The notes: generated by a model from the sequence alone, not told the origin. 7,832 nucleotides of DNA from a virus (IMGVR_UViG_2534682222_000010:1-7832), one strand, 5' to 3'. Shown: positions 1 to 4,858, counted from the stretch's first letter. Made by a program: numbers and translations.

Positions 1-484
1 GGTATGTGAGAATGTCAGCAATAGTATTTTTACCGATAATGTCACGTCCAACAGAAGTTAAATCAGTCTGCGCAGCTGTATCAGTTCCAGTGAAATACGG
101 TAATTTATTTGCTGCGCCCACTAACGCGGCTAACGCCGTCAATGTAGGATTCAGCGGCTGGAAGTTCCCAAGGATGTAGGACAGCGTTCCGGCCGTCATC
201 ATGTTTGCCGCAATGTCATTTGCTGACCACGCTCGTGGGACAGTTCCTTCCTGCCCACGCTGAATAGTAAAGACATCACCAGCCCGGGCAGTAACATGAA
301 CAATCTCCGTAAGAGAACCGGTTGTAGCATCAATCAGCGTCAGCTTAAAGAAACTTGTGCCTGATACCGGAGAAGGAAATAGTGCACCAGTTCCGGTATT
401 TAGTGTCAACGATGTTGCTGAGGCGCTAATGCCAGCCGCCAGAACGCTTTGAGCATTGTTAGCAGCTAAAAGTTGAAGTGCCAT
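1..484 (-). CDS. Phage tail fibre protein, N-terminal 161 codons (gene continues beyond window start)
   Basis: Minus-strand ATG at 484..482, preceded by GGAGGA (493..488) with a 3-nt spacer. Hand translation MALQLLAANNAQSVLAAGISASATSLTLNTGTGALFPSPVSGTSFFKLTLIDATTGSLTEIVHVTARAGDVFTIQRGQEGTVPRAWSANDIAANMMTAGTLSYILGNFQPLNPTLTALAALVGAANKLPYFTGTDTAAQTDLTSVGRDIIGKNTIADILTY is open to position 1. The stretch TLTALAAL..NKLPYF..VGRDI..KN..AD is a motif I recall from enterobacterial prophage side tail fibre proteins. Absent from the ORF track because it is truncated by the window edge. Confidence 0.75.
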   Translation of the reverse strand, partial: MALQLLAANNAQSVLAAGISASATSLTLNTGTGALFPSPVSGTSFFKLTLIDATTGSLTEIVHVTARAGDVFTIQRGQEGTVPRAWSANDIAANMMTAGTLSYILGNFQPLNPTLTALAALVGAANKLPYFTGTDTAAQTDLTSVGRDIIGKNTIADILTY

Positions 485-542: not shown

Positions 543-1517
543 TTAGTTAATTACGAATTCTGCTTTAGCGCCGCGGAAGGAGATTGTTTTGTTTCCTGCC
601 CGCCGGCAAGCATCAGCAATTGCTTTCATGCCATATTCAATATTTGCCAGATGACTTCTCATTGCTACGATTTCAGCCTTAGGCGCTGATACGTCAAACC
701 CTGCCGCCTCAAGAATACTGATCAAGCGAATGGCGGACGATGTTGAATTGTCGCCACAGAGCATAGGCATAGTGACGTCCAGGGCAGGTGCACACATTGA
801 CTTTCCGAATGACAGGTTGCCACTGCGAACCACCGGATTGTTGTCAATCCACCACTGGAGAGGAAGGTTTACGTCAAACTTCGGTGTAGGGAGCGCCTCT
901 TGCTTTCCAAGAAACTCGCCTTCAATCGGTACGCGCGCCGCAATAGATAGCGCTTCGGTAAACTGGTCGTCGCTGATTTCTTTGTAGCTGCAACCAAAGT
1001 GGGATTTCAGTGATGACCACATAGTGATCATTGCCTTGGCCTGACAATCTTTCGGCAGTGCTTTACCACGGGTCATTACCAGTTGTTTGATCGCCTCCTG
1101 CTGCTCGGGAGTGATTTTACCTGGTAATGCCTTTTTCGCCTTGCGTGGGTTTTTGACCTCGCCTTTAGTCCAGTATTCGTAAAGCACATCGTCGCACTCC
1201 TCCTGATAGCGAATGACGTTATCGCGAATTCCTGGCCGTACTTTGTTAGGGCTGATGGTTTGGAGCCAGCCATTCAGTTTGCGTAACGCAAGGCAAAGCA
1301 TGGTTTGTTTACCCCCTTTCGTAGGGATCATGATTTCCATGACCCCTTTAGCAAACCGTGATTTCAGCTTATCGACCTGACCTTGATAGGTTAATCCCAT
1401 GCCATCAATAATTGGGCGCATTGGGGTATAAGCCTCACCGTTGTGCTCTACCACGAAAAGAGAATTTCCATAGAAAGGCACGTTGATTGTACGATCTGCA
1501 ATTGCTAAACTATTCAT
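543..1517 (-). CDS. ant: Phage antirepressor (Ant-like), 324 aa
   Basis: Part of track ORF 543..1607, but I place the start at ATG 1517..1515 (MNSLAIADRTINVPF...), which has AAGGA 7 nt upstream. The track start at 1607 lies inside the arc coding sequence in another frame and has no spacer after its purine run. The N-terminal half resembles the AntA/Rha-type antirepressor domain from memory. Location immediately downstream of an Arc homologue and divergent from an Mnt-like gene matches P22 immI. Confidence 0.75.
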   Translation of the reverse strand: MNSLAIADRTINVPFYGNSLFVVEHNGEAYTPMRPIIDGMGLTYQGQVDKLKSRFAKGVMEIMIPTKGGKQTMLCLALRKLNGWLQTISPNKVRPGIRDNVIRYQEECDDVLYEYWTKGEVKNPRKAKKALPGKITPEQQEAIKQLVMTRGKALPKDCQAKAMITMWSSLKSHFGCSYKEISDDQFTEALSIAARVPIEGEFLGKQEALPTPKFDVNLPLQWWIDNNPVVRSGNLSFGKSMCAPALDVTMPMLCGDNSTSSAIRLISILEAAGFDVSAPKAEIVAMRSHLANIEYGMKAIADACRRAGNKTISFRGAKAEFVIN

Positions 1518-1589
1518 TGTTAGTTCCTTGGTAGTTACTGACAAATTTGAAGCCCTGACTGTTGCTGCAGTTGGGGCTTCGTCGTTTCT
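1518..1589 (+). ncRNA. Candidate sar-like antisense RNA covering the ant ribosome-binding site
   Basis: Plus-strand candidate promoter inside the 5' end of ant: -35 TTGATT (1483..1488), 17-bp spacer, TG-extended -10 TGcTAAACT (1503..1511), predicted start near 1518. About 70 nt downstream is a hairpin plus U-rich tail (see terminator 1549..1589). The transcript would be complementary to the ant SD (1525..1529) and the arc-ant spacer. Inferred by analogy with P22 sar; not demonstrated. Confidence 0.3.
1549..1589 (+). terminator. Candidate intrinsic terminator for the antisense transcript
   Basis: Stem GAAGCCC (1549..1555) / GGGCTTC (1574..1580), with an inner ACTG/CAGT pairing (1558..1561 / 1568..1571), followed on the plus strand by GTCGTTTCT. 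On the minus strand it is followed by AAATTTG, so it is not a terminator in the mRNA direction. Confidence 0.35.
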
Positions 1590-1749
1590 ATGCCTTAATA
1601 AATCCATCTTCTTTCAAGCTCCTTTCTATACGTTTAATCACCTCACTGTTTACCGAGCGCCCCTCTTCTTTTGCTGCTTTCTTCAGGATTTCCTTCAGTG
1701 CATCAGGGAACCGAATGCCTGTTGGAGGGATGTTTCTTGCGTTGTGCAT
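1588..1749 (-). CDS. arc: Arc-like ribbon-helix-helix repressor, 53 aa (not in ORF track)
   Basis: Minus-strand ATG at 1749..1747 with AGGAGA (1760..1755) 5 nt upstream; TAG stop at 1590..1588. Hand translation MHNARNIPPTGIRFPDALKEILKKAAKEEGRSVNSEVIKRIERSLKEDGFIKA. Same length as P22 Arc and, from my memory of that sequence, shares the EEGRSVNSE core and C-terminal KEDG.I.A pattern. Sits directly upstream of ant as in P22. Confidence 0.85.
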   Translation of the reverse strand: MHNARNIPPTGIRFPDALKEILKKAAKEEGRSVNSEVIKRIERSLKEDGFIKA

Positions 1750-1771
1750 ATCATTCTCCTACTCAAAAAAA

Positions 1772-1784
1772 CTACATTATGTAG
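1772..1784. promoter_or_regulatory. Operator candidate 1: perfect 13-bp palindrome CTACAT-T-ATGTAG
   Basis: 6-bp arms around one central base. Embedded in a 17-bp unit ACTACATTATGTAGATT (1771..1787) that recurs exactly at 1828..1844. Lies just downstream of the candidate -10 of the arc-ant promoter, at the predicted transcript start. Confidence 0.6.
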
Positions 1785-1788
1785 ATTT

Positions 1789-1837
1789 ATAATTACAGCA
1801 TGTGTCTATTGCGTCAAGCACTTTTCGACTACATTAT
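1789..1837. promoter_or_regulatory. Candidate divergent, overlapping promoters (Pant-like on minus strand, Pmnt-like on plus strand)
   Basis: Minus strand: -35 TTGACG (1817..1812), 17-bp spacer, -10 AATTAT (1794..1789). Plus strand: -35 TTGCGT (1809..1814), 17-bp spacer, -10 CATTAT (1832..1837). The two -35 hexamers overlap on opposite strands. A perfect plus-strand TATAAT also sits at 1788..1793 but has no good -35. Hexamer assignments are by eye and uncertain. Confidence 0.3.
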
Positions 1838-1841
1838 GTAG
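1829..1841. promoter_or_regulatory. Operator candidate 2: identical 13-bp palindrome CTACAT-T-ATGTAG
   Basis: Second exact copy, centre 57 bp from the first. Overlaps the candidate -10 (CATTAT, 1832..1837) of the plus-strand promoter for the Mnt-like gene and lies upstream of the -35 of the minus-strand promoter. Confidence 0.6.
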
Positions 1842-1864
1842 ATTGTTGATTCTGAGGATGTAGC

Positions 1865-2197
1865 ATGAAAGGTGCCAGCTTGATAGCCCCGCTCGGGGTG
1901 AGGATCCCTGAAGATTTAAAGGAAAAAATCCAAGCCCAAGCAAAGGAAAACGGACGGTCGACTAACGCTGAAATCGTTCAAATACTCGAAAGTTCGTTTT
2001 CAAAGCTTGATGAAGGTGAAAACAATCGTTCGAATGAAACTTCAGGCCATTATCAATACTTACTGAGTATGAAGGATGAAATTATTGAGGCACAAAAGGA
2101 AACTATATCTCACATGGAAAACACTATAAATAGCCTCAGCGAGCACATTAACATTCTGAAAGATCATGTTGAGTTTTTGAAGAATAAGTACAAATAG
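1865..2197 (+). CDS. Mnt-like ribbon-helix-helix repressor with C-terminal coiled-coil extension, 110 aa
   Basis: Track ORF 1865..2197. ATG at 1865 with GAGGA (1854..1858) 6 nt upstream. N-terminus LGVRIPEDLKEKIQAQAKENGRSTNAEIVQILESSF fits the Arc/Mnt/MetJ pattern (beta-strand, helix, NGRS turn, helix). The C-terminal ~50 residues look coiled-coil-like with heptad-spaced hydrophobics. Divergent from arc-ant, the position P22 mnt occupies. Confidence 0.7.
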   Translation: MKGASLIAPLGVRIPEDLKEKIQAQAKENGRSTNAEIVQILESSFSKLDEGENNRSNETSGHYQYLLSMKDEIIEAQKETISHMENTINSLSEHINILKDHVEFLKNKYK

Positions 2198-2230: not shown

Positions 2231-2686
2231 CTACCATTGTTTTTTTAAATCGTCTTCTGTCATTTTTAATCTAAAAATATCTTTATATTTTTTTATGTAA
2301 ACTTCAGGGGATGCCCTGCACTTCATTTGAAAGTTTTTATCAAAATACTCCGTATTTCTTTTTATTCCTTCAACGGCGTCATTTTTTATCAACTCTTTAA
2401 CAATCATTCTGTATTCATCATGTGGGATAAGTAATATGTCACCAATCATATGGTCTCCTGAATACTGACCACTTACAGCATCATTTGCTGCATTGATGAT
2501 AAGCAAGGATGATGCAAAGCACATATTGTAAATATTTAGATCCGTTGGTTTCAACCCTGATTTTTTAATTTCATTTAACATCATTGAGTATTCTTCTTGA
2601 TCATTGGTTGGTAATGGAGCCGCCAACCCAACATGAACAGTTGAGAAAAAATACAAAAAACATGTTATTCCTATTTTTTTTATCAT
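2231..2686 (-). CDS. Hypothetical small exported protein with N-terminal signal peptide, AT-rich moron
   Basis: Track ORF 2231..2692, but the codon at 2692..2690 is GTG; the first ATG is 2686..2684, giving MIKKIGITCFLYFFSTVHVGLA/APLPTNDQ... (151 aa). N-terminus has a basic start, hydrophobic core and small residues at -3/-1, consistent with a signal peptidase I site; no lipobox. Two Cys in the mature part. By inspection the gene is much more AT-rich than the flanking baseplate genes. I recognise no family. Confidence 0.55.
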   Translation of the reverse strand: MIKKIGITCFLYFFSTVHVGLAAPLPTNDQEEYSMMLNEIKKSGLKPTDLNIYNMCFASSLLIINAANDAVSGQYSGDHMIGDILLIPHDEYRMIVKELIKNDAVEGIKRNTEYFDKNFQMKCRASPEVYIKKYKDIFRLKMTEDDLKKQW

Positions 2687-2733
2687 GCCCACTAACCCAG
2701 GTTATAAATGACTCGGAAGATAAGCATAACAAT

Positions 2734-3439: not shown

Positions 3440-4858
3440 TTATATCCCGTCGACAATTACCCCATTTGAGGCCATGTACCAGTAACTATATGGGTCACCG
3501 CTGATTATATTCGTACCGGCGTCAACGCCTGTGATAACGCCGTTCACAGTCACAATAACATTCAGGGTCGAGATCAGGCTCATATCGAGCGTGCTGTTAA
3601 TCGCCTGAAGAAAGACATCTTTGACGTTATTTATATTCATCGGCTTTCCTGCGAATATCCCGTTTACATAATTGATTACCGGTTGCGTCACCAGAGAGGC
3701 TATTGTCGCGTCTGTCAGGTAGTTCGCGCTTTCGGTTGCCCACTGAAACTTGATAGTCACCAGTTGCTGAAATGGTATAACAAACGGTATCAGGTAGTTA
3801 TCTGGCCAGTCGTTGACCGTAACCACATTATTCCTCAGGTTCGGCGTAACTATTCCACCACCAGTCCATGCGCCTGACGAGGTGGTATTGATGCCTATTG
3901 AGAAAGTGTGTGGACTTAACACGGTTATAGTGAGAGGGACGTTATTAATCCCGCTCATGCCGGTAACACCTGCGATATTAATTACCTGGCCAGAGCTGAA
4001 TCCGTGCGTGATGTCGGTCGTTACTACTCCTGGGTTCGCATTGGTGATCCCGGTGACGTTCAGGTCAGTCCCTTTTAGCCTGCTGATGTCGCCGGCTGAC
4101 TTATAAATGGCCCCGGCCATCTCATAGATATCGCCGCCGCCACACATAACAATCCAGGCATTACCGCTCTGAACAACGGAAACCAGACGAGCCTGGACAT
4201 TACTCAGGTCTGTCAATTTCTGGCGGATAAAGCCTGGATATCCCTGAACAGTCGACATCTGAGCTTCCCAGACGCGCTCGCGAAATTCGAAGTTAGTTTC
4301 AGGCGCACCACCTGGGGTGCCAGCAACCGGGTTGGTGCAGGTCAGAGTAATGCCAGACGGCAGGCTGGTCAGTATCTGATTAACCGATCCTACCGGTACA
4401 GCCCACGAACCAGTGTTTGTTGCAATGGCTGTTACCATCGAACTGACACCGGAAGACAGCACCACTGTCGCATCGGCGATCTGGTAGGTATACGTGCCAT
4501 CGCTGACCAGAAACCCCTGTGACACTACGAAGCCGACCGGGCCCTCAAACACGACAGGTACAGTTGTCGCCCCCTGAGTTTTTTGTTCGCTGATACCTGA
4601 CTGCTGGGCCAGAAGGTTCAGCATGTACATATTGGCTTTCAGCGGGCCTACGGAGTTGATGAGGTCGACACGAATCTGATCGGCAATGAGTAGCGCGCCA
4701 ACATCGGTACCGACGATATCCTCGATAAGTGATCCGGGGAGGTCCGTAGTGATGCCTGGTGATAATTCTGTGGCTCTTGAAACTAAGTCGGCGCGCAGCT
4801 CTTCGGATGTTTTCGGCACTGGCCCGGCTGCGTCATAGCTAACGGACAAATCACTCAT
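3440..4858 (-). CDS. Baseplate J-like protein (472 aa)
   Basis: Track ORF with ATG at 4858..4856 overlapping the upstream stop as ATGA. Size and position (after a ~110-aa gene, before the gpI-like gene and tail fibre) fit baseplate wedge protein J of Mu (gp47) or P2 (gpJ). Assigned by overall resemblance and synteny; unverified. Confidence 0.65.
   Translation of the reverse strand: MSDLSVSYDAAGPVPKTSEELRADLVSRATELSPGITTDLPGSLIEDIVGTDVGALLIADQIRVDLINSVGPLKANMYMLNLLAQQSGISEQKTQGATTVPVVFEGPVGFVVSQGFLVSDGTYTYQIADATVVLSSGVSSMVTAIATNTGSWAVPVGSVNQILTSLPSGITLTCTNPVAGTPGGAPETNFEFRERVWEAQMSTVQGYPGFIRQKLTDLSNVQARLVSVVQSGNAWIVMCGGGDIYEMAGAIYKSAGDISRLKGTDLNVTGITNANPGVVTTDITHGFSSGQVINIAGVTGMSGINNVPLTITVLSPHTFSIGINTTSSGAWTGGGIVTPNLRNNVVTVNDWPDNYLIPFVIPFQQLVTIKFQWATESANYLTDATIASLVTQPVINYVNGIFAGKPMNINNVKDVFLQAINSTLDMSLISTLNVIVTVNGVITGVDAGTNIISGDPYSYWYMASNGVIVDGI

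Follow-up and report, generated by a model that had tools for sequence, protein, structure and literature searches.

When two divergent repressor genes are separated by DNA that carries the same palindrome twice, which of the two proteins acts at which copy? The question is raised by a viral DNA of 7,832 nucleotides (IMGVR_UViG_2534682222_000010:1-7832; hereafter the window, that is, the whole stretch analysed). In this DNA an arc-like gene encoding 53 amino acids and a divergent mnt-like gene encoding 110 amino acids, both for ribbon-helix-helix (RHH) proteins, are separated by 115 base pairs (bp). The arc-like gene is followed by an antirepressor gene, ant, in an arrangement like that of the immI region of phage P22. 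A preliminary description of the locus had proposed that a single repressor, either the Arc-like or the Mnt-like protein, controls both promoters through two identical operators. Our analysis indicates that the palindromes are very probably operators of the cassette's own RHH repressors, and that a third, degenerate site lies between them. Taken as a whole, the data are best explained, with good though incomplete confidence, by a switch of the P22 immI type in which the Mnt-like protein occupies the two identical sites.

Palindromic sites and predicted promoters of the intergenic region

The element CTACATTATGTAG, a perfect 6+1+6 palindrome, lies within each copy of an exact 17-bp direct repeat, ACTACATTATGTAGATT, whose copies start 57 bp apart. 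The sites and the predicted promoters (Pant for the arc-like/ant operon, Pmnt for the mnt-like gene) are as follows.

1772–1784, no strand: putative operator O1, CTACATTATGTAG, at about −2 to +11 of Pant, inside the 17-bp unit 1771–1787
1829–1841, no strand: putative operator O2, CTACATTATGTAG, inside the 17-bp unit 1828–1844 and beginning 36 bp ahead of the mnt-like ATG
1793–1805, no strand: putative degenerate middle operator O3, TTACAGCATGTGT, in the Pant spacer at about −23 to −11
1812–1817, minus strand: −35 hexamer of Pant, TTGACG (promoter scan and weight matrix)
1789–1797, minus strand: −10 hexamer of Pant, AATTAT (1794–1789), with an upstream TG (1797–1796) (promoter scan and weight matrix)
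1830–1835, plus strand: candidate −10 hexamer of Pmnt, TACATT, at positions 2–7 of O2, with a weak −35 hexamer TTGCGT at 1809–1814

The two palindromes and their enclosing repeat are located exactly as had been described, and the repeat is not random. When the 115-bp intergenic region was shuffled 20,000 times with its dinucleotides preserved, a perfect direct repeat at least 13 bp long arose only once, and the one observed extends over 17 bp. A single palindrome of this kind is unremarkable in that region (951 of the 20,000 shuffles), and the entire window contains five where 2.0 are expected. The lone half-site ATGTAG at 1858–1863, which abuts the mnt-like ATG at 1865 and had been listed as a further element, did not prove significant: the hexamer occurs five times on the plus strand of the window against about two expected. 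Only the closest clade keeps it, in overlap with the Shine-Dalgarno region, and loci L018–L021 of the comparison set described below lack it. Two more copies of the hexamer, 32 bp apart at 142–147 and 174–179 (plus strand), lie at the window's left end, within the tail-fibre region, and are probably due to chance or to a coding repeat. Further copies of the operator were sought in about 200 kb of flanking DNA (20-kb flanks, ten genomes) and none was found, so that the circuit appears self-contained.

Conservation of the sites was evaluated on a set of about 80 related cassettes (L numbers), of which the diverged ones were gathered through the Mnt-like protein. Promoters and sites were scored in 19 loci, and a separate viral sample served as an independent set. 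Megablast of the window against phage records gave no match, and a more distant blastn search matched the N-terminal coding part of ant only; relatives of the control region were therefore reached through the proteins. An exact 14-mer scan of viral contigs yielded mostly single chance matches, and a pair in L177 only (the contig of L226). Both palindrome copies are identical in 10 other genomes having the same Mnt-like protein, and the control regions of the close relatives L002–L011 are identical throughout and thus carry no footprinting information. In the diverged loci the 13-bp element of O2 is invariant (7 of 7) despite flanks that have drifted, and with 20.8 bits O2 is the best conserved of the three sites. 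An O1-type site is present in most related loci. It is the most variable one (14.0 bits), its core being kept but degenerating, and in other lineages O1 is either unlike O2 or identical to it over the 13 bp only. The 17-bp unit and the exact identity of O1 and O2 are thus specific to the lineage of the window, as far as these alignments go, and not general to the system. Identity over 13 bp nevertheless arose independently in L014 and L105, where both the flanks and the variant of the element differ from those of the window.

The third site, O3, matches O1 and O2 at 8 of 13 positions and at 7 of 8 core positions. Its distance from O2 is exactly 36 bp in 18 of the 19 loci, while the O1-O3 spacing ranges from 16 to 29 bp; the independent viral sample shows the same spacing pattern. 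A full palindrome occupies the O3 position in L019–L021 and L104. The right arm of O3 is conserved although it lies in a promoter spacer, where sequence is not constrained, and the information content of the site (16.5 bits) exceeds that of O1. Because of the fixed distance to O2, the conserved right arm and the higher information content, we take O3 as a real site. Relative to the mnt-like ATG, the sites of the window lie at −93 (O1), −72 (O3) and −36 (O2). The corresponding positions are −96/−73/−37 in Rahnella, −99/−75/−39 in Symbiopectobacterium and −96/−72/−36 in Mangrovibacter, all three with a good middle palindrome, and cassettes from Enterobacterales to alpha- and betaproteobacteria repeat this arrangement of three sites flanked by one long and one short RHH gene, divergently oriented. 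The identical pair of the preliminary description is thus present, but it belongs to a design which, read from these comparisons, is one of three graded sites of a single operator family.

On the Pant side, the combination TTGACG-17-AATTAT scores 11.5 bits with a sigma-70 weight matrix; it is strong and keeps the same register in 19 of 19 loci, and the GTCAA of its −35 element is invariant in the alignment of the diverged loci (A3). With a predicted start of the arc-ant transcript at about 1782, O1 covers that start, as had been noted, and O2 falls at about −47 to −59 of Pant. On the plus strand, no −10 candidate other than TACA[T/C]T within O2 has a consistent position; it exceeds 3 bits in 15 of the 19 loci but has a poor −35 element. 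At the centre of the palindrome, O2 always has T (2.0 bits), whereas O1 (0.2 bits) and O3 (0.9 bits) vary freely there. This supports a −10 element of Pmnt in O2, because the invariant T would be the critical last base of the TACAYT hexamer. The earlier placement of the second palindrome over the mnt-like −10 element is therefore in line with the best candidate. The predicted mnt-like transcript would start at about 1842 and have a 23-nucleotide leader containing the conserved GAGGA.

Both predicted promoters, Pant (1817–1789) and the best Pmnt candidate (1809–1835), would overlap within their −35 hexamers only (TTGCGTCAA). The overlap of divergent promoters that had been suggested thus holds for these hexamers and does not reach the full overlap seen in P22. 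Two other placements of Pmnt were rejected. An alternative with TTGACT/TCGACT at the left arm of O2 as −35 and a −10 at 1848–1853 would start transcription after the conserved Shine-Dalgarno sequence GAGGA, and a fully overlapping promoter of the P22 type, with its −10 over the −35 of Pant, scores poorly and is not conserved. A near-consensus TTGACT on the plus strand overlaps the first two bases of O2 in L018–L021, L098 and L104 (TCGACT at 1825–1830 in the window). This hexamer may be part of an extended operator or the −35 element of an alternative promoter.

Sites of the form CTACA-N3-TGTAG are associated with a particular kind of RHH protein. With at most one mismatch and within 250 nucleotides upstream, the motif was found for 15 of 30 genes whose product has a P[LFY]G[VLI]R strand and for 1 of 50 genes with other strands (Fisher p = 3e-7). 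The RHH genes were taken from species-representative genomes, and the background was 2 matches in 80 kb. Genes of alpha- and betaproteobacteria are among the positive ones, whereas the P22-type and 'QLRIRLP'-type loci of the viral sample gave no match. The window has two perfect sites and a degenerate one in the roughly 120 bp that precede the gene, and PxGxR genes lacking an RHH partner (L028, L043) are likewise preceded by such sites. These data identify CTACA-N3-TGTAG as the predicted operator of a widespread RHH subfamily with a Pro-x-Gly-x-Arg strand, to which both repressors of the cassette belong; the subfamily is delineated in this analysis and is not a named family. No description of this operator type or layout was found in the open-access literature searched, which is weak evidence given that coverage, nor does the literature searched describe an operator for Erwinia phage Midgardsormr38 or Edwardsiella phage Edno5, the only sequenced phages with this pair of repressors.

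Proposed assignment of the repressors to the sites

Both repressors align without gaps to the solved Arc, the Arc-like protein over residues 5–52 (E 1e-7) and the Mnt-like protein to Arc residues 1–47. The Mnt-like protein also matches the Mnt structure 1mnt over residues 11–50 (E 1.3e-4). The turn motif NGRS/EGRS of the window repressors aligns with Arc and Mnt. The DNA-facing strand carries P9, G11 and R13 in both window repressors, against Q9, N11 and R13 in Arc; the three residues are invariant in 24 Mnt-like homologues and kept in Arc-like homologues. In RHH proteins, specificity is set mainly by the ribbon (PMC3413123). The N-terminal arms of the two proteins are unlike, MHNARNIP in the Arc-like and MKGASLIA in the Mnt-like protein. 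In an AlphaFold2 model of the Mnt-like protein, the RHH domain (helices at 16–29 and from 33) continues into a single long, confidently predicted helix that runs from residue 33 to 109. In sequence the C-terminus does not resemble the one in Mnt, and on the strength of the model the protein probably oligomerises as Mnt does. The structure PDB 9PIO, annotated as 'Arc family DNA-binding protein', comes from a ClpXP substrate study and was set aside as irrelevant.

Sequence variation at O2 follows the Mnt-like protein. Position 6 of O2 is T in all 11 loci whose Mnt-like protein starts with MKGAS and C in all 7 that start with MKGMR, and the contrast includes a matched pair with similar C-termini (L102 versus L101). 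The rule holds in the independent viral sample for 24 of 24 and 12 of 12 loci, respectively. One identical Arc-like N-terminus (ENARNIPPTGIRFP) is paired with both operator classes. Since position 6 follows the N-terminal arm of the Mnt-like protein and not the Arc-like N-terminus, O2 appears to track the Mnt-like protein; and since O1 is identical to O2 in the window, the same protein should occupy both. We therefore consider the Mnt-like protein to be the probable main occupant of O1 and O2.

Variation on the Pant side points to the partner. When the short protein is of the FMLRLP or PLGLRIEP type, the Pant-proximal geometry is altered (16-bp spacing, or 11-bp direct GTGTAG repeats) and the O2 type is kept. 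This change of O1/O3 geometry with the partner type hints that the short protein acts on the O1/O3 side. In five loci with a PLGLRIEP partner (L022, L267, L269, L271 and L276), GTGTAG-N5-GTGTAG replaces the Pant-proximal sites while O2 stays CTACACTGTGATG, possibly a change of operator geometry accompanying the replacement of the repressor. No clean covariation was found between the strand type of the Arc-like protein and O3, which is nearly the same in L023 (FMLRLP) and L103 (PTGIR).

Although identical sites must have the same reader, as the preliminary description held, its alternative of one repressor or the other may still fail, because P9, G11 and R13 are present in both proteins. Both repressors might then read O1, O3 and O2, with concentration and oligomeric state, and not operator sequence, deciding the outcome. 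The identical DNA-facing residues, the retention of PxGxR in both paralogues throughout cassettes of gamma-, alpha- and betaproteobacteria, and the fact that the CTACA-N3-TGTAG family is the only recurrent palindromic motif of the intergenic region are what one would expect of such a shared code. The N-terminal arms are unlike, however, and arms add to specificity in Arc and Mnt; moreover, operator variants follow the arm of the Mnt-like and not of the Arc-like protein, and partner replacement changes the O1/O3 geometry while the O2 type stays, which suggests a division of labour. On balance a code common to the two proteins seems to us possible but more doubtful than a division of the sites, and the same reserve applies to the narrower proposal that the Arc-like protein also reads O1 and O2, which we hold for an open chance somewhat short of even. 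It is quite improbable that the identical palindromes are bound chiefly by the Arc-like protein, which would thereby shut both promoters, with the Mnt-like protein acting elsewhere or only at O3. In P22, Arc represses both Pant and Pmnt, and this precedent, the PxGxR strand of the Arc-like protein and the location of its start codon just 22 bp from O1 are consistent with such a role. It is contradicted by the covariation of O2 with the Mnt-like arm and by the Arc-like N-terminus shared between both operator classes. The distance from O2 to the mnt-like ATG, kept at −35 to −42, is moreover typical of autoregulation, and the PxGxR genes of L028 and L043 have such sites upstream in spite of having no RHH partner.

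Hardly credible, finally, is the view that the identical pair is an accident of recent duplication or gene conversion, or a site for LexA, for the main prophage repressor or for an RNA hairpin. The 17-bp identity that includes the flanks is lineage-specific, as a recent conversion would predict, and LexA controls other antirepressor modules, such as those of N15, Gifsy and SPC32H. Yet the sites are conserved in very distant cassettes and linked to the strand type of the adjoining RHH genes, and identity of O1 and O2 arose again independently in L014 and L105. A LexA box (SOS box CTGT-N8-ACAG) is not found at two or fewer mismatches within 1750–1864, a 6-bp stem with a 1-nucleotide loop cannot form a stable RNA hairpin, and the lack of extra copies in the 20-kb flanks is contrary to what a global prophage repressor would require. 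The conservation of the sites largely refutes this explanation.

Several observations weigh against the assignment of O1 and O2 to the Mnt-like protein, or against parts of it. The codons of the Mnt-like arm lie 36 bp from O2, so that the covariation could reflect a co-inherited recombination block, and the independent changes behind it are far fewer than the loci counted. Position 8 of O2 breaks a strict rule, since the sequence is CAT-T-GTG in L102 and L105. In the genome sample, no recognisable site precedes half of the PxGxR genes. The Pmnt candidate is weak (about 6 bits, 15-nucleotide spacer), and its −10 signal is partly imposed by the operator sequence. Identical O1 and O2 would also give autoregulation and repression of Pant an equal threshold, which is odd unless binding is cooperative. 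As to the proteins, Knight and Sauer reportedly located the specificity of P22 Arc and Mnt largely in the N-terminal arm (1989); with specificity based on the arm, the identity of the strand residues is no proof that the Arc-like protein recognises these sites too.

From the assignment of the Mnt-like protein to O1 and O2, we infer the following order of events. In the lysogen, Mnt-like protein made from the weak Pmnt would fill O1 and O2. At O1 it would block Pant at its start, so that neither the Arc-like protein nor Ant would be produced, and at O2, over what is likely its own −10 element, it would limit its own synthesis by autoregulation. Should Pant fire, for instance upon infection or when the Mnt-like protein is lost, the Arc-like protein would accumulate and feed back on Pant, most probably at O3 in the Pant spacer and possibly together with O1. 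A sar-like RNA would place an antisense limit on ant translation, as in P22. A further scheme can be drawn in which an Arc-like dimer and a Mnt-like oligomer share one code through the Pro-Gly-Arg ribbon, the arms tune preference among three graded sites, and occupancy of O3, by way of the rigid 36-bp O3-O2 unit, both represses Pant and stimulates Pmnt, giving a bistable antirepressor switch like that of the lambda operator OR. We regard this scheme as rather unlikely.

The cassette and its genomic setting

The control region belongs to a cassette composed of the following elements.

543–1517, minus strand: ant, antirepressor gene of 324 amino acids (PF10547 P22_AR_N, E 4.9e-41, residues 12–121)
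1517–1584, plus strand: sar-like antisense RNA (Rfam RF00262, 46.9 bits against a gathering score of 43, E 3.6e-8)
1588–1749, minus strand: arc-like RHH repressor gene of 53 amino acids, first gene of the Pant operon (Pfam Arc PF03869, E 2e-12)
1865–2197, plus strand: mnt-like RHH repressor gene of 110 amino acids (Pfam Arc PF03869, E 3e-12)
2201–2222, no strand: hairpin terminator between the convergent mnt-like gene and the next open reading frame, with perfect 10-bp arms (terminator scan)
2231–2692, minus strand: cargo open reading frame of 153 amino acids with a hydrophobic, signal-like N-terminus and no Pfam match

The Pfam matches bear out the earlier identification of the flanking genes as coding for a 53-amino-acid Arc-like protein, Ant and a divergent Mnt-like RHH protein. 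The arc-like gene lies directly upstream of ant on the same strand, and the arc-like/sar/ant operon runs from 1749 to 543 (minus strand). The complete order is mnt-like gene, O2/Pmnt, Pant −35, O3, Pant −10, O1, arc-like gene, sar, ant. A 324-amino-acid ant gene is also called in related loci. The sar match covers the ribosome-binding site and the start of ant (ATG 1517–1515); its terminator hairpin at 1548–1581 has a fold z-score of −5.6 and is seen as a terminator-like site in the scan. A weak candidate sar promoter consists of TTGATT (1484–1489), 17 nucleotides and TAAACT (1507–1512).

By its gene content, the cassette is a complete P22-immI-type "ant moron" amid tail genes, a concept described for P22-like phages (PMC2629481). 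It measures about 2.2 kb including the 153-codon open reading frame and, in a myovirus-like prophage, separates the tail-fibre genes from the baseplate genes. It is absent (window about 517–2733) from Escherichia coli prophages that are otherwise 85–89% identical (compared with L001 3485–3868) and that carry at this junction a predicted membrane protein of 98 amino acids instead. The tail-fibre/baseplate junction looks like a hot spot for moron exchange. The same type of cassette occurs in several differing tail-gene contexts, including lambda-like ones. Proteins 95–98% identical to the Mnt-like protein are found in Enterobacter roggenkampii.

Some neighbouring features deserve mention in their own right. 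The 153-codon open reading frame adjoins the mnt-like gene, at the position of sieA in P22. Related loci have it intact (151 amino acids), truncated (72 amino acids) or replaced, once together with an insertion sequence fragment (L003), and a role in lysogenic conversion or exclusion is possible. A baseplate-J-like protein (3440–4858, minus strand) contains a ubiquitin-activating-enzyme E1 FCCH domain (PF16190, E 1e-14, residues 275–338), which is unusual in a phage baseplate wedge protein. In L004, L006, L010 and L011, a Hin/Gin-type resolvase gene lies beside opposed genes for tail-fibre C-terminal parts and assembly chaperones (about 5.6–7.7 kb in locus coordinates), and this suggests an invertible host-range segment just past the ant gene.

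Significance and relation to known systems

Arc and Mnt are the textbook models of site choice by RHH proteins, and P22 immI is the model of an antirepressor circuit. The cassette described here is a widespread sister design: its two repressors share undiverged ribbon residues, and its operators are graded members of a single family. The setting of RHH specificity by N-terminal arms can be studied in it on a natural series, in which, for example, residues 4–5 (AS versus MR) are paired with operator position 6 (T versus C), and it is a test case for the use of one operator code in maintenance as well as in feedback repression. Together, the motif and the layout of three sites provide a simple signature by which antirepressor morons, with their control regions, can be annotated in prophages of Enterobacter, Citrobacter, Salmonella, Rahnella and others. 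If a lambda-OR-like logic is true of the cassette, an RHH switch of that kind would be conserved from enterobacterial prophages to alphaproteobacteria. In principle, the finding is not surprising.

Antirepressor modules controlled by LexA, which include N15 AntC, Gifsy GfoA/GfhA and SPC32H Ant, resemble the proposed circuit in that the antirepressor is kept silent in the lysogen. They differ in their control, which in the window would be exerted by the cassette's RHH repressors and sar and involves no LexA box. Other RHH repressors offer a likeness in the mode of DNA reading. CopG (13-bp pseudo-symmetric element), the omega repressor (ATCAC heptads) and MetJ (metboxes) read short palindromic or repeated sub-sites in the major groove by an antiparallel beta-ribbon, with several sites per promoter. 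The ribbon Arg probably reads a G in the CA/TG-containing core, and the variant sites of L023–L025 contain ATCAC. At the sequence level the window proteins are nevertheless not members of these groups, Pfam placing both in Arc (PF03869).

The similarities to lambda OR are in the layout. Divergent promoters enclose three graded operators of one type, which may serve two different repressors in common. O3 keeps a rigid distance from O2, and its centre falls about 43 bp ahead of the start predicted for Pmnt, compared with −42 of PRM for OR2. That occupancy of O3 stimulates Pmnt would be, on this analogy, pure speculation. In contrast to lambda, the proteins are RHH and not helix-turn-helix, the spacing of the sites is different, and an antirepressor is controlled and not the primary immunity switch. 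The circuit logic may be said to resemble that of lambda OR more than that of P22.

The gene content and organisation are those of P22 immI. The two systems share gene order and orientation, a 53-amino-acid Arc-like protein encoded first in the ant operon, a divergent RHH repressor with a C-terminal helical extension (predicted for the window protein), a sar RNA above the Rfam threshold and an Ant protein with a P22_AR_N domain. In both, the moron is placed within late/tail genes (PMC2629481). Each has an operator at the Pant start, where O1 takes the position of Omnt, and one in the Pant spacer, where O3 takes that of Oarc: in the P22 record X01916.1, what we take from established knowledge to be Omnt covers +1 to +17 of Pant, and what we take to be Oarc lies in the spacer. 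P22 has nothing that corresponds to O2 at the mnt-side promoter. The sequences themselves are different. P22 has an unrelated 21-bp Oarc and 17-bp Omnt, which confirms that the two are distinct as the preliminary description had stated, whereas the window has three related 13-bp palindromes that are unlike ATGATAGAAGCACTCTACTAT or GGTCCACGGTGGACC, the P22 operators. The repressor strands diverge in P22 (Q9/N11/R13 in Arc, H/N/R in Mnt, with different arms), whereas both are P9/G11/R13 in the window, so that the contrast with P22 goes further than the preliminary description had proposed. The Mnt-like C-terminus is not similar in sequence to that of P22 Mnt. The intergenic region is 115 bp long in the window and 90 bp in P22, and the P22 promoters overlap fully, each −35 over the other's −10, whereas the predicted promoters of the window share their −35 hexamers only. 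The cassette is thus a well-supported variant of the P22 immI system and not a new kind of system.

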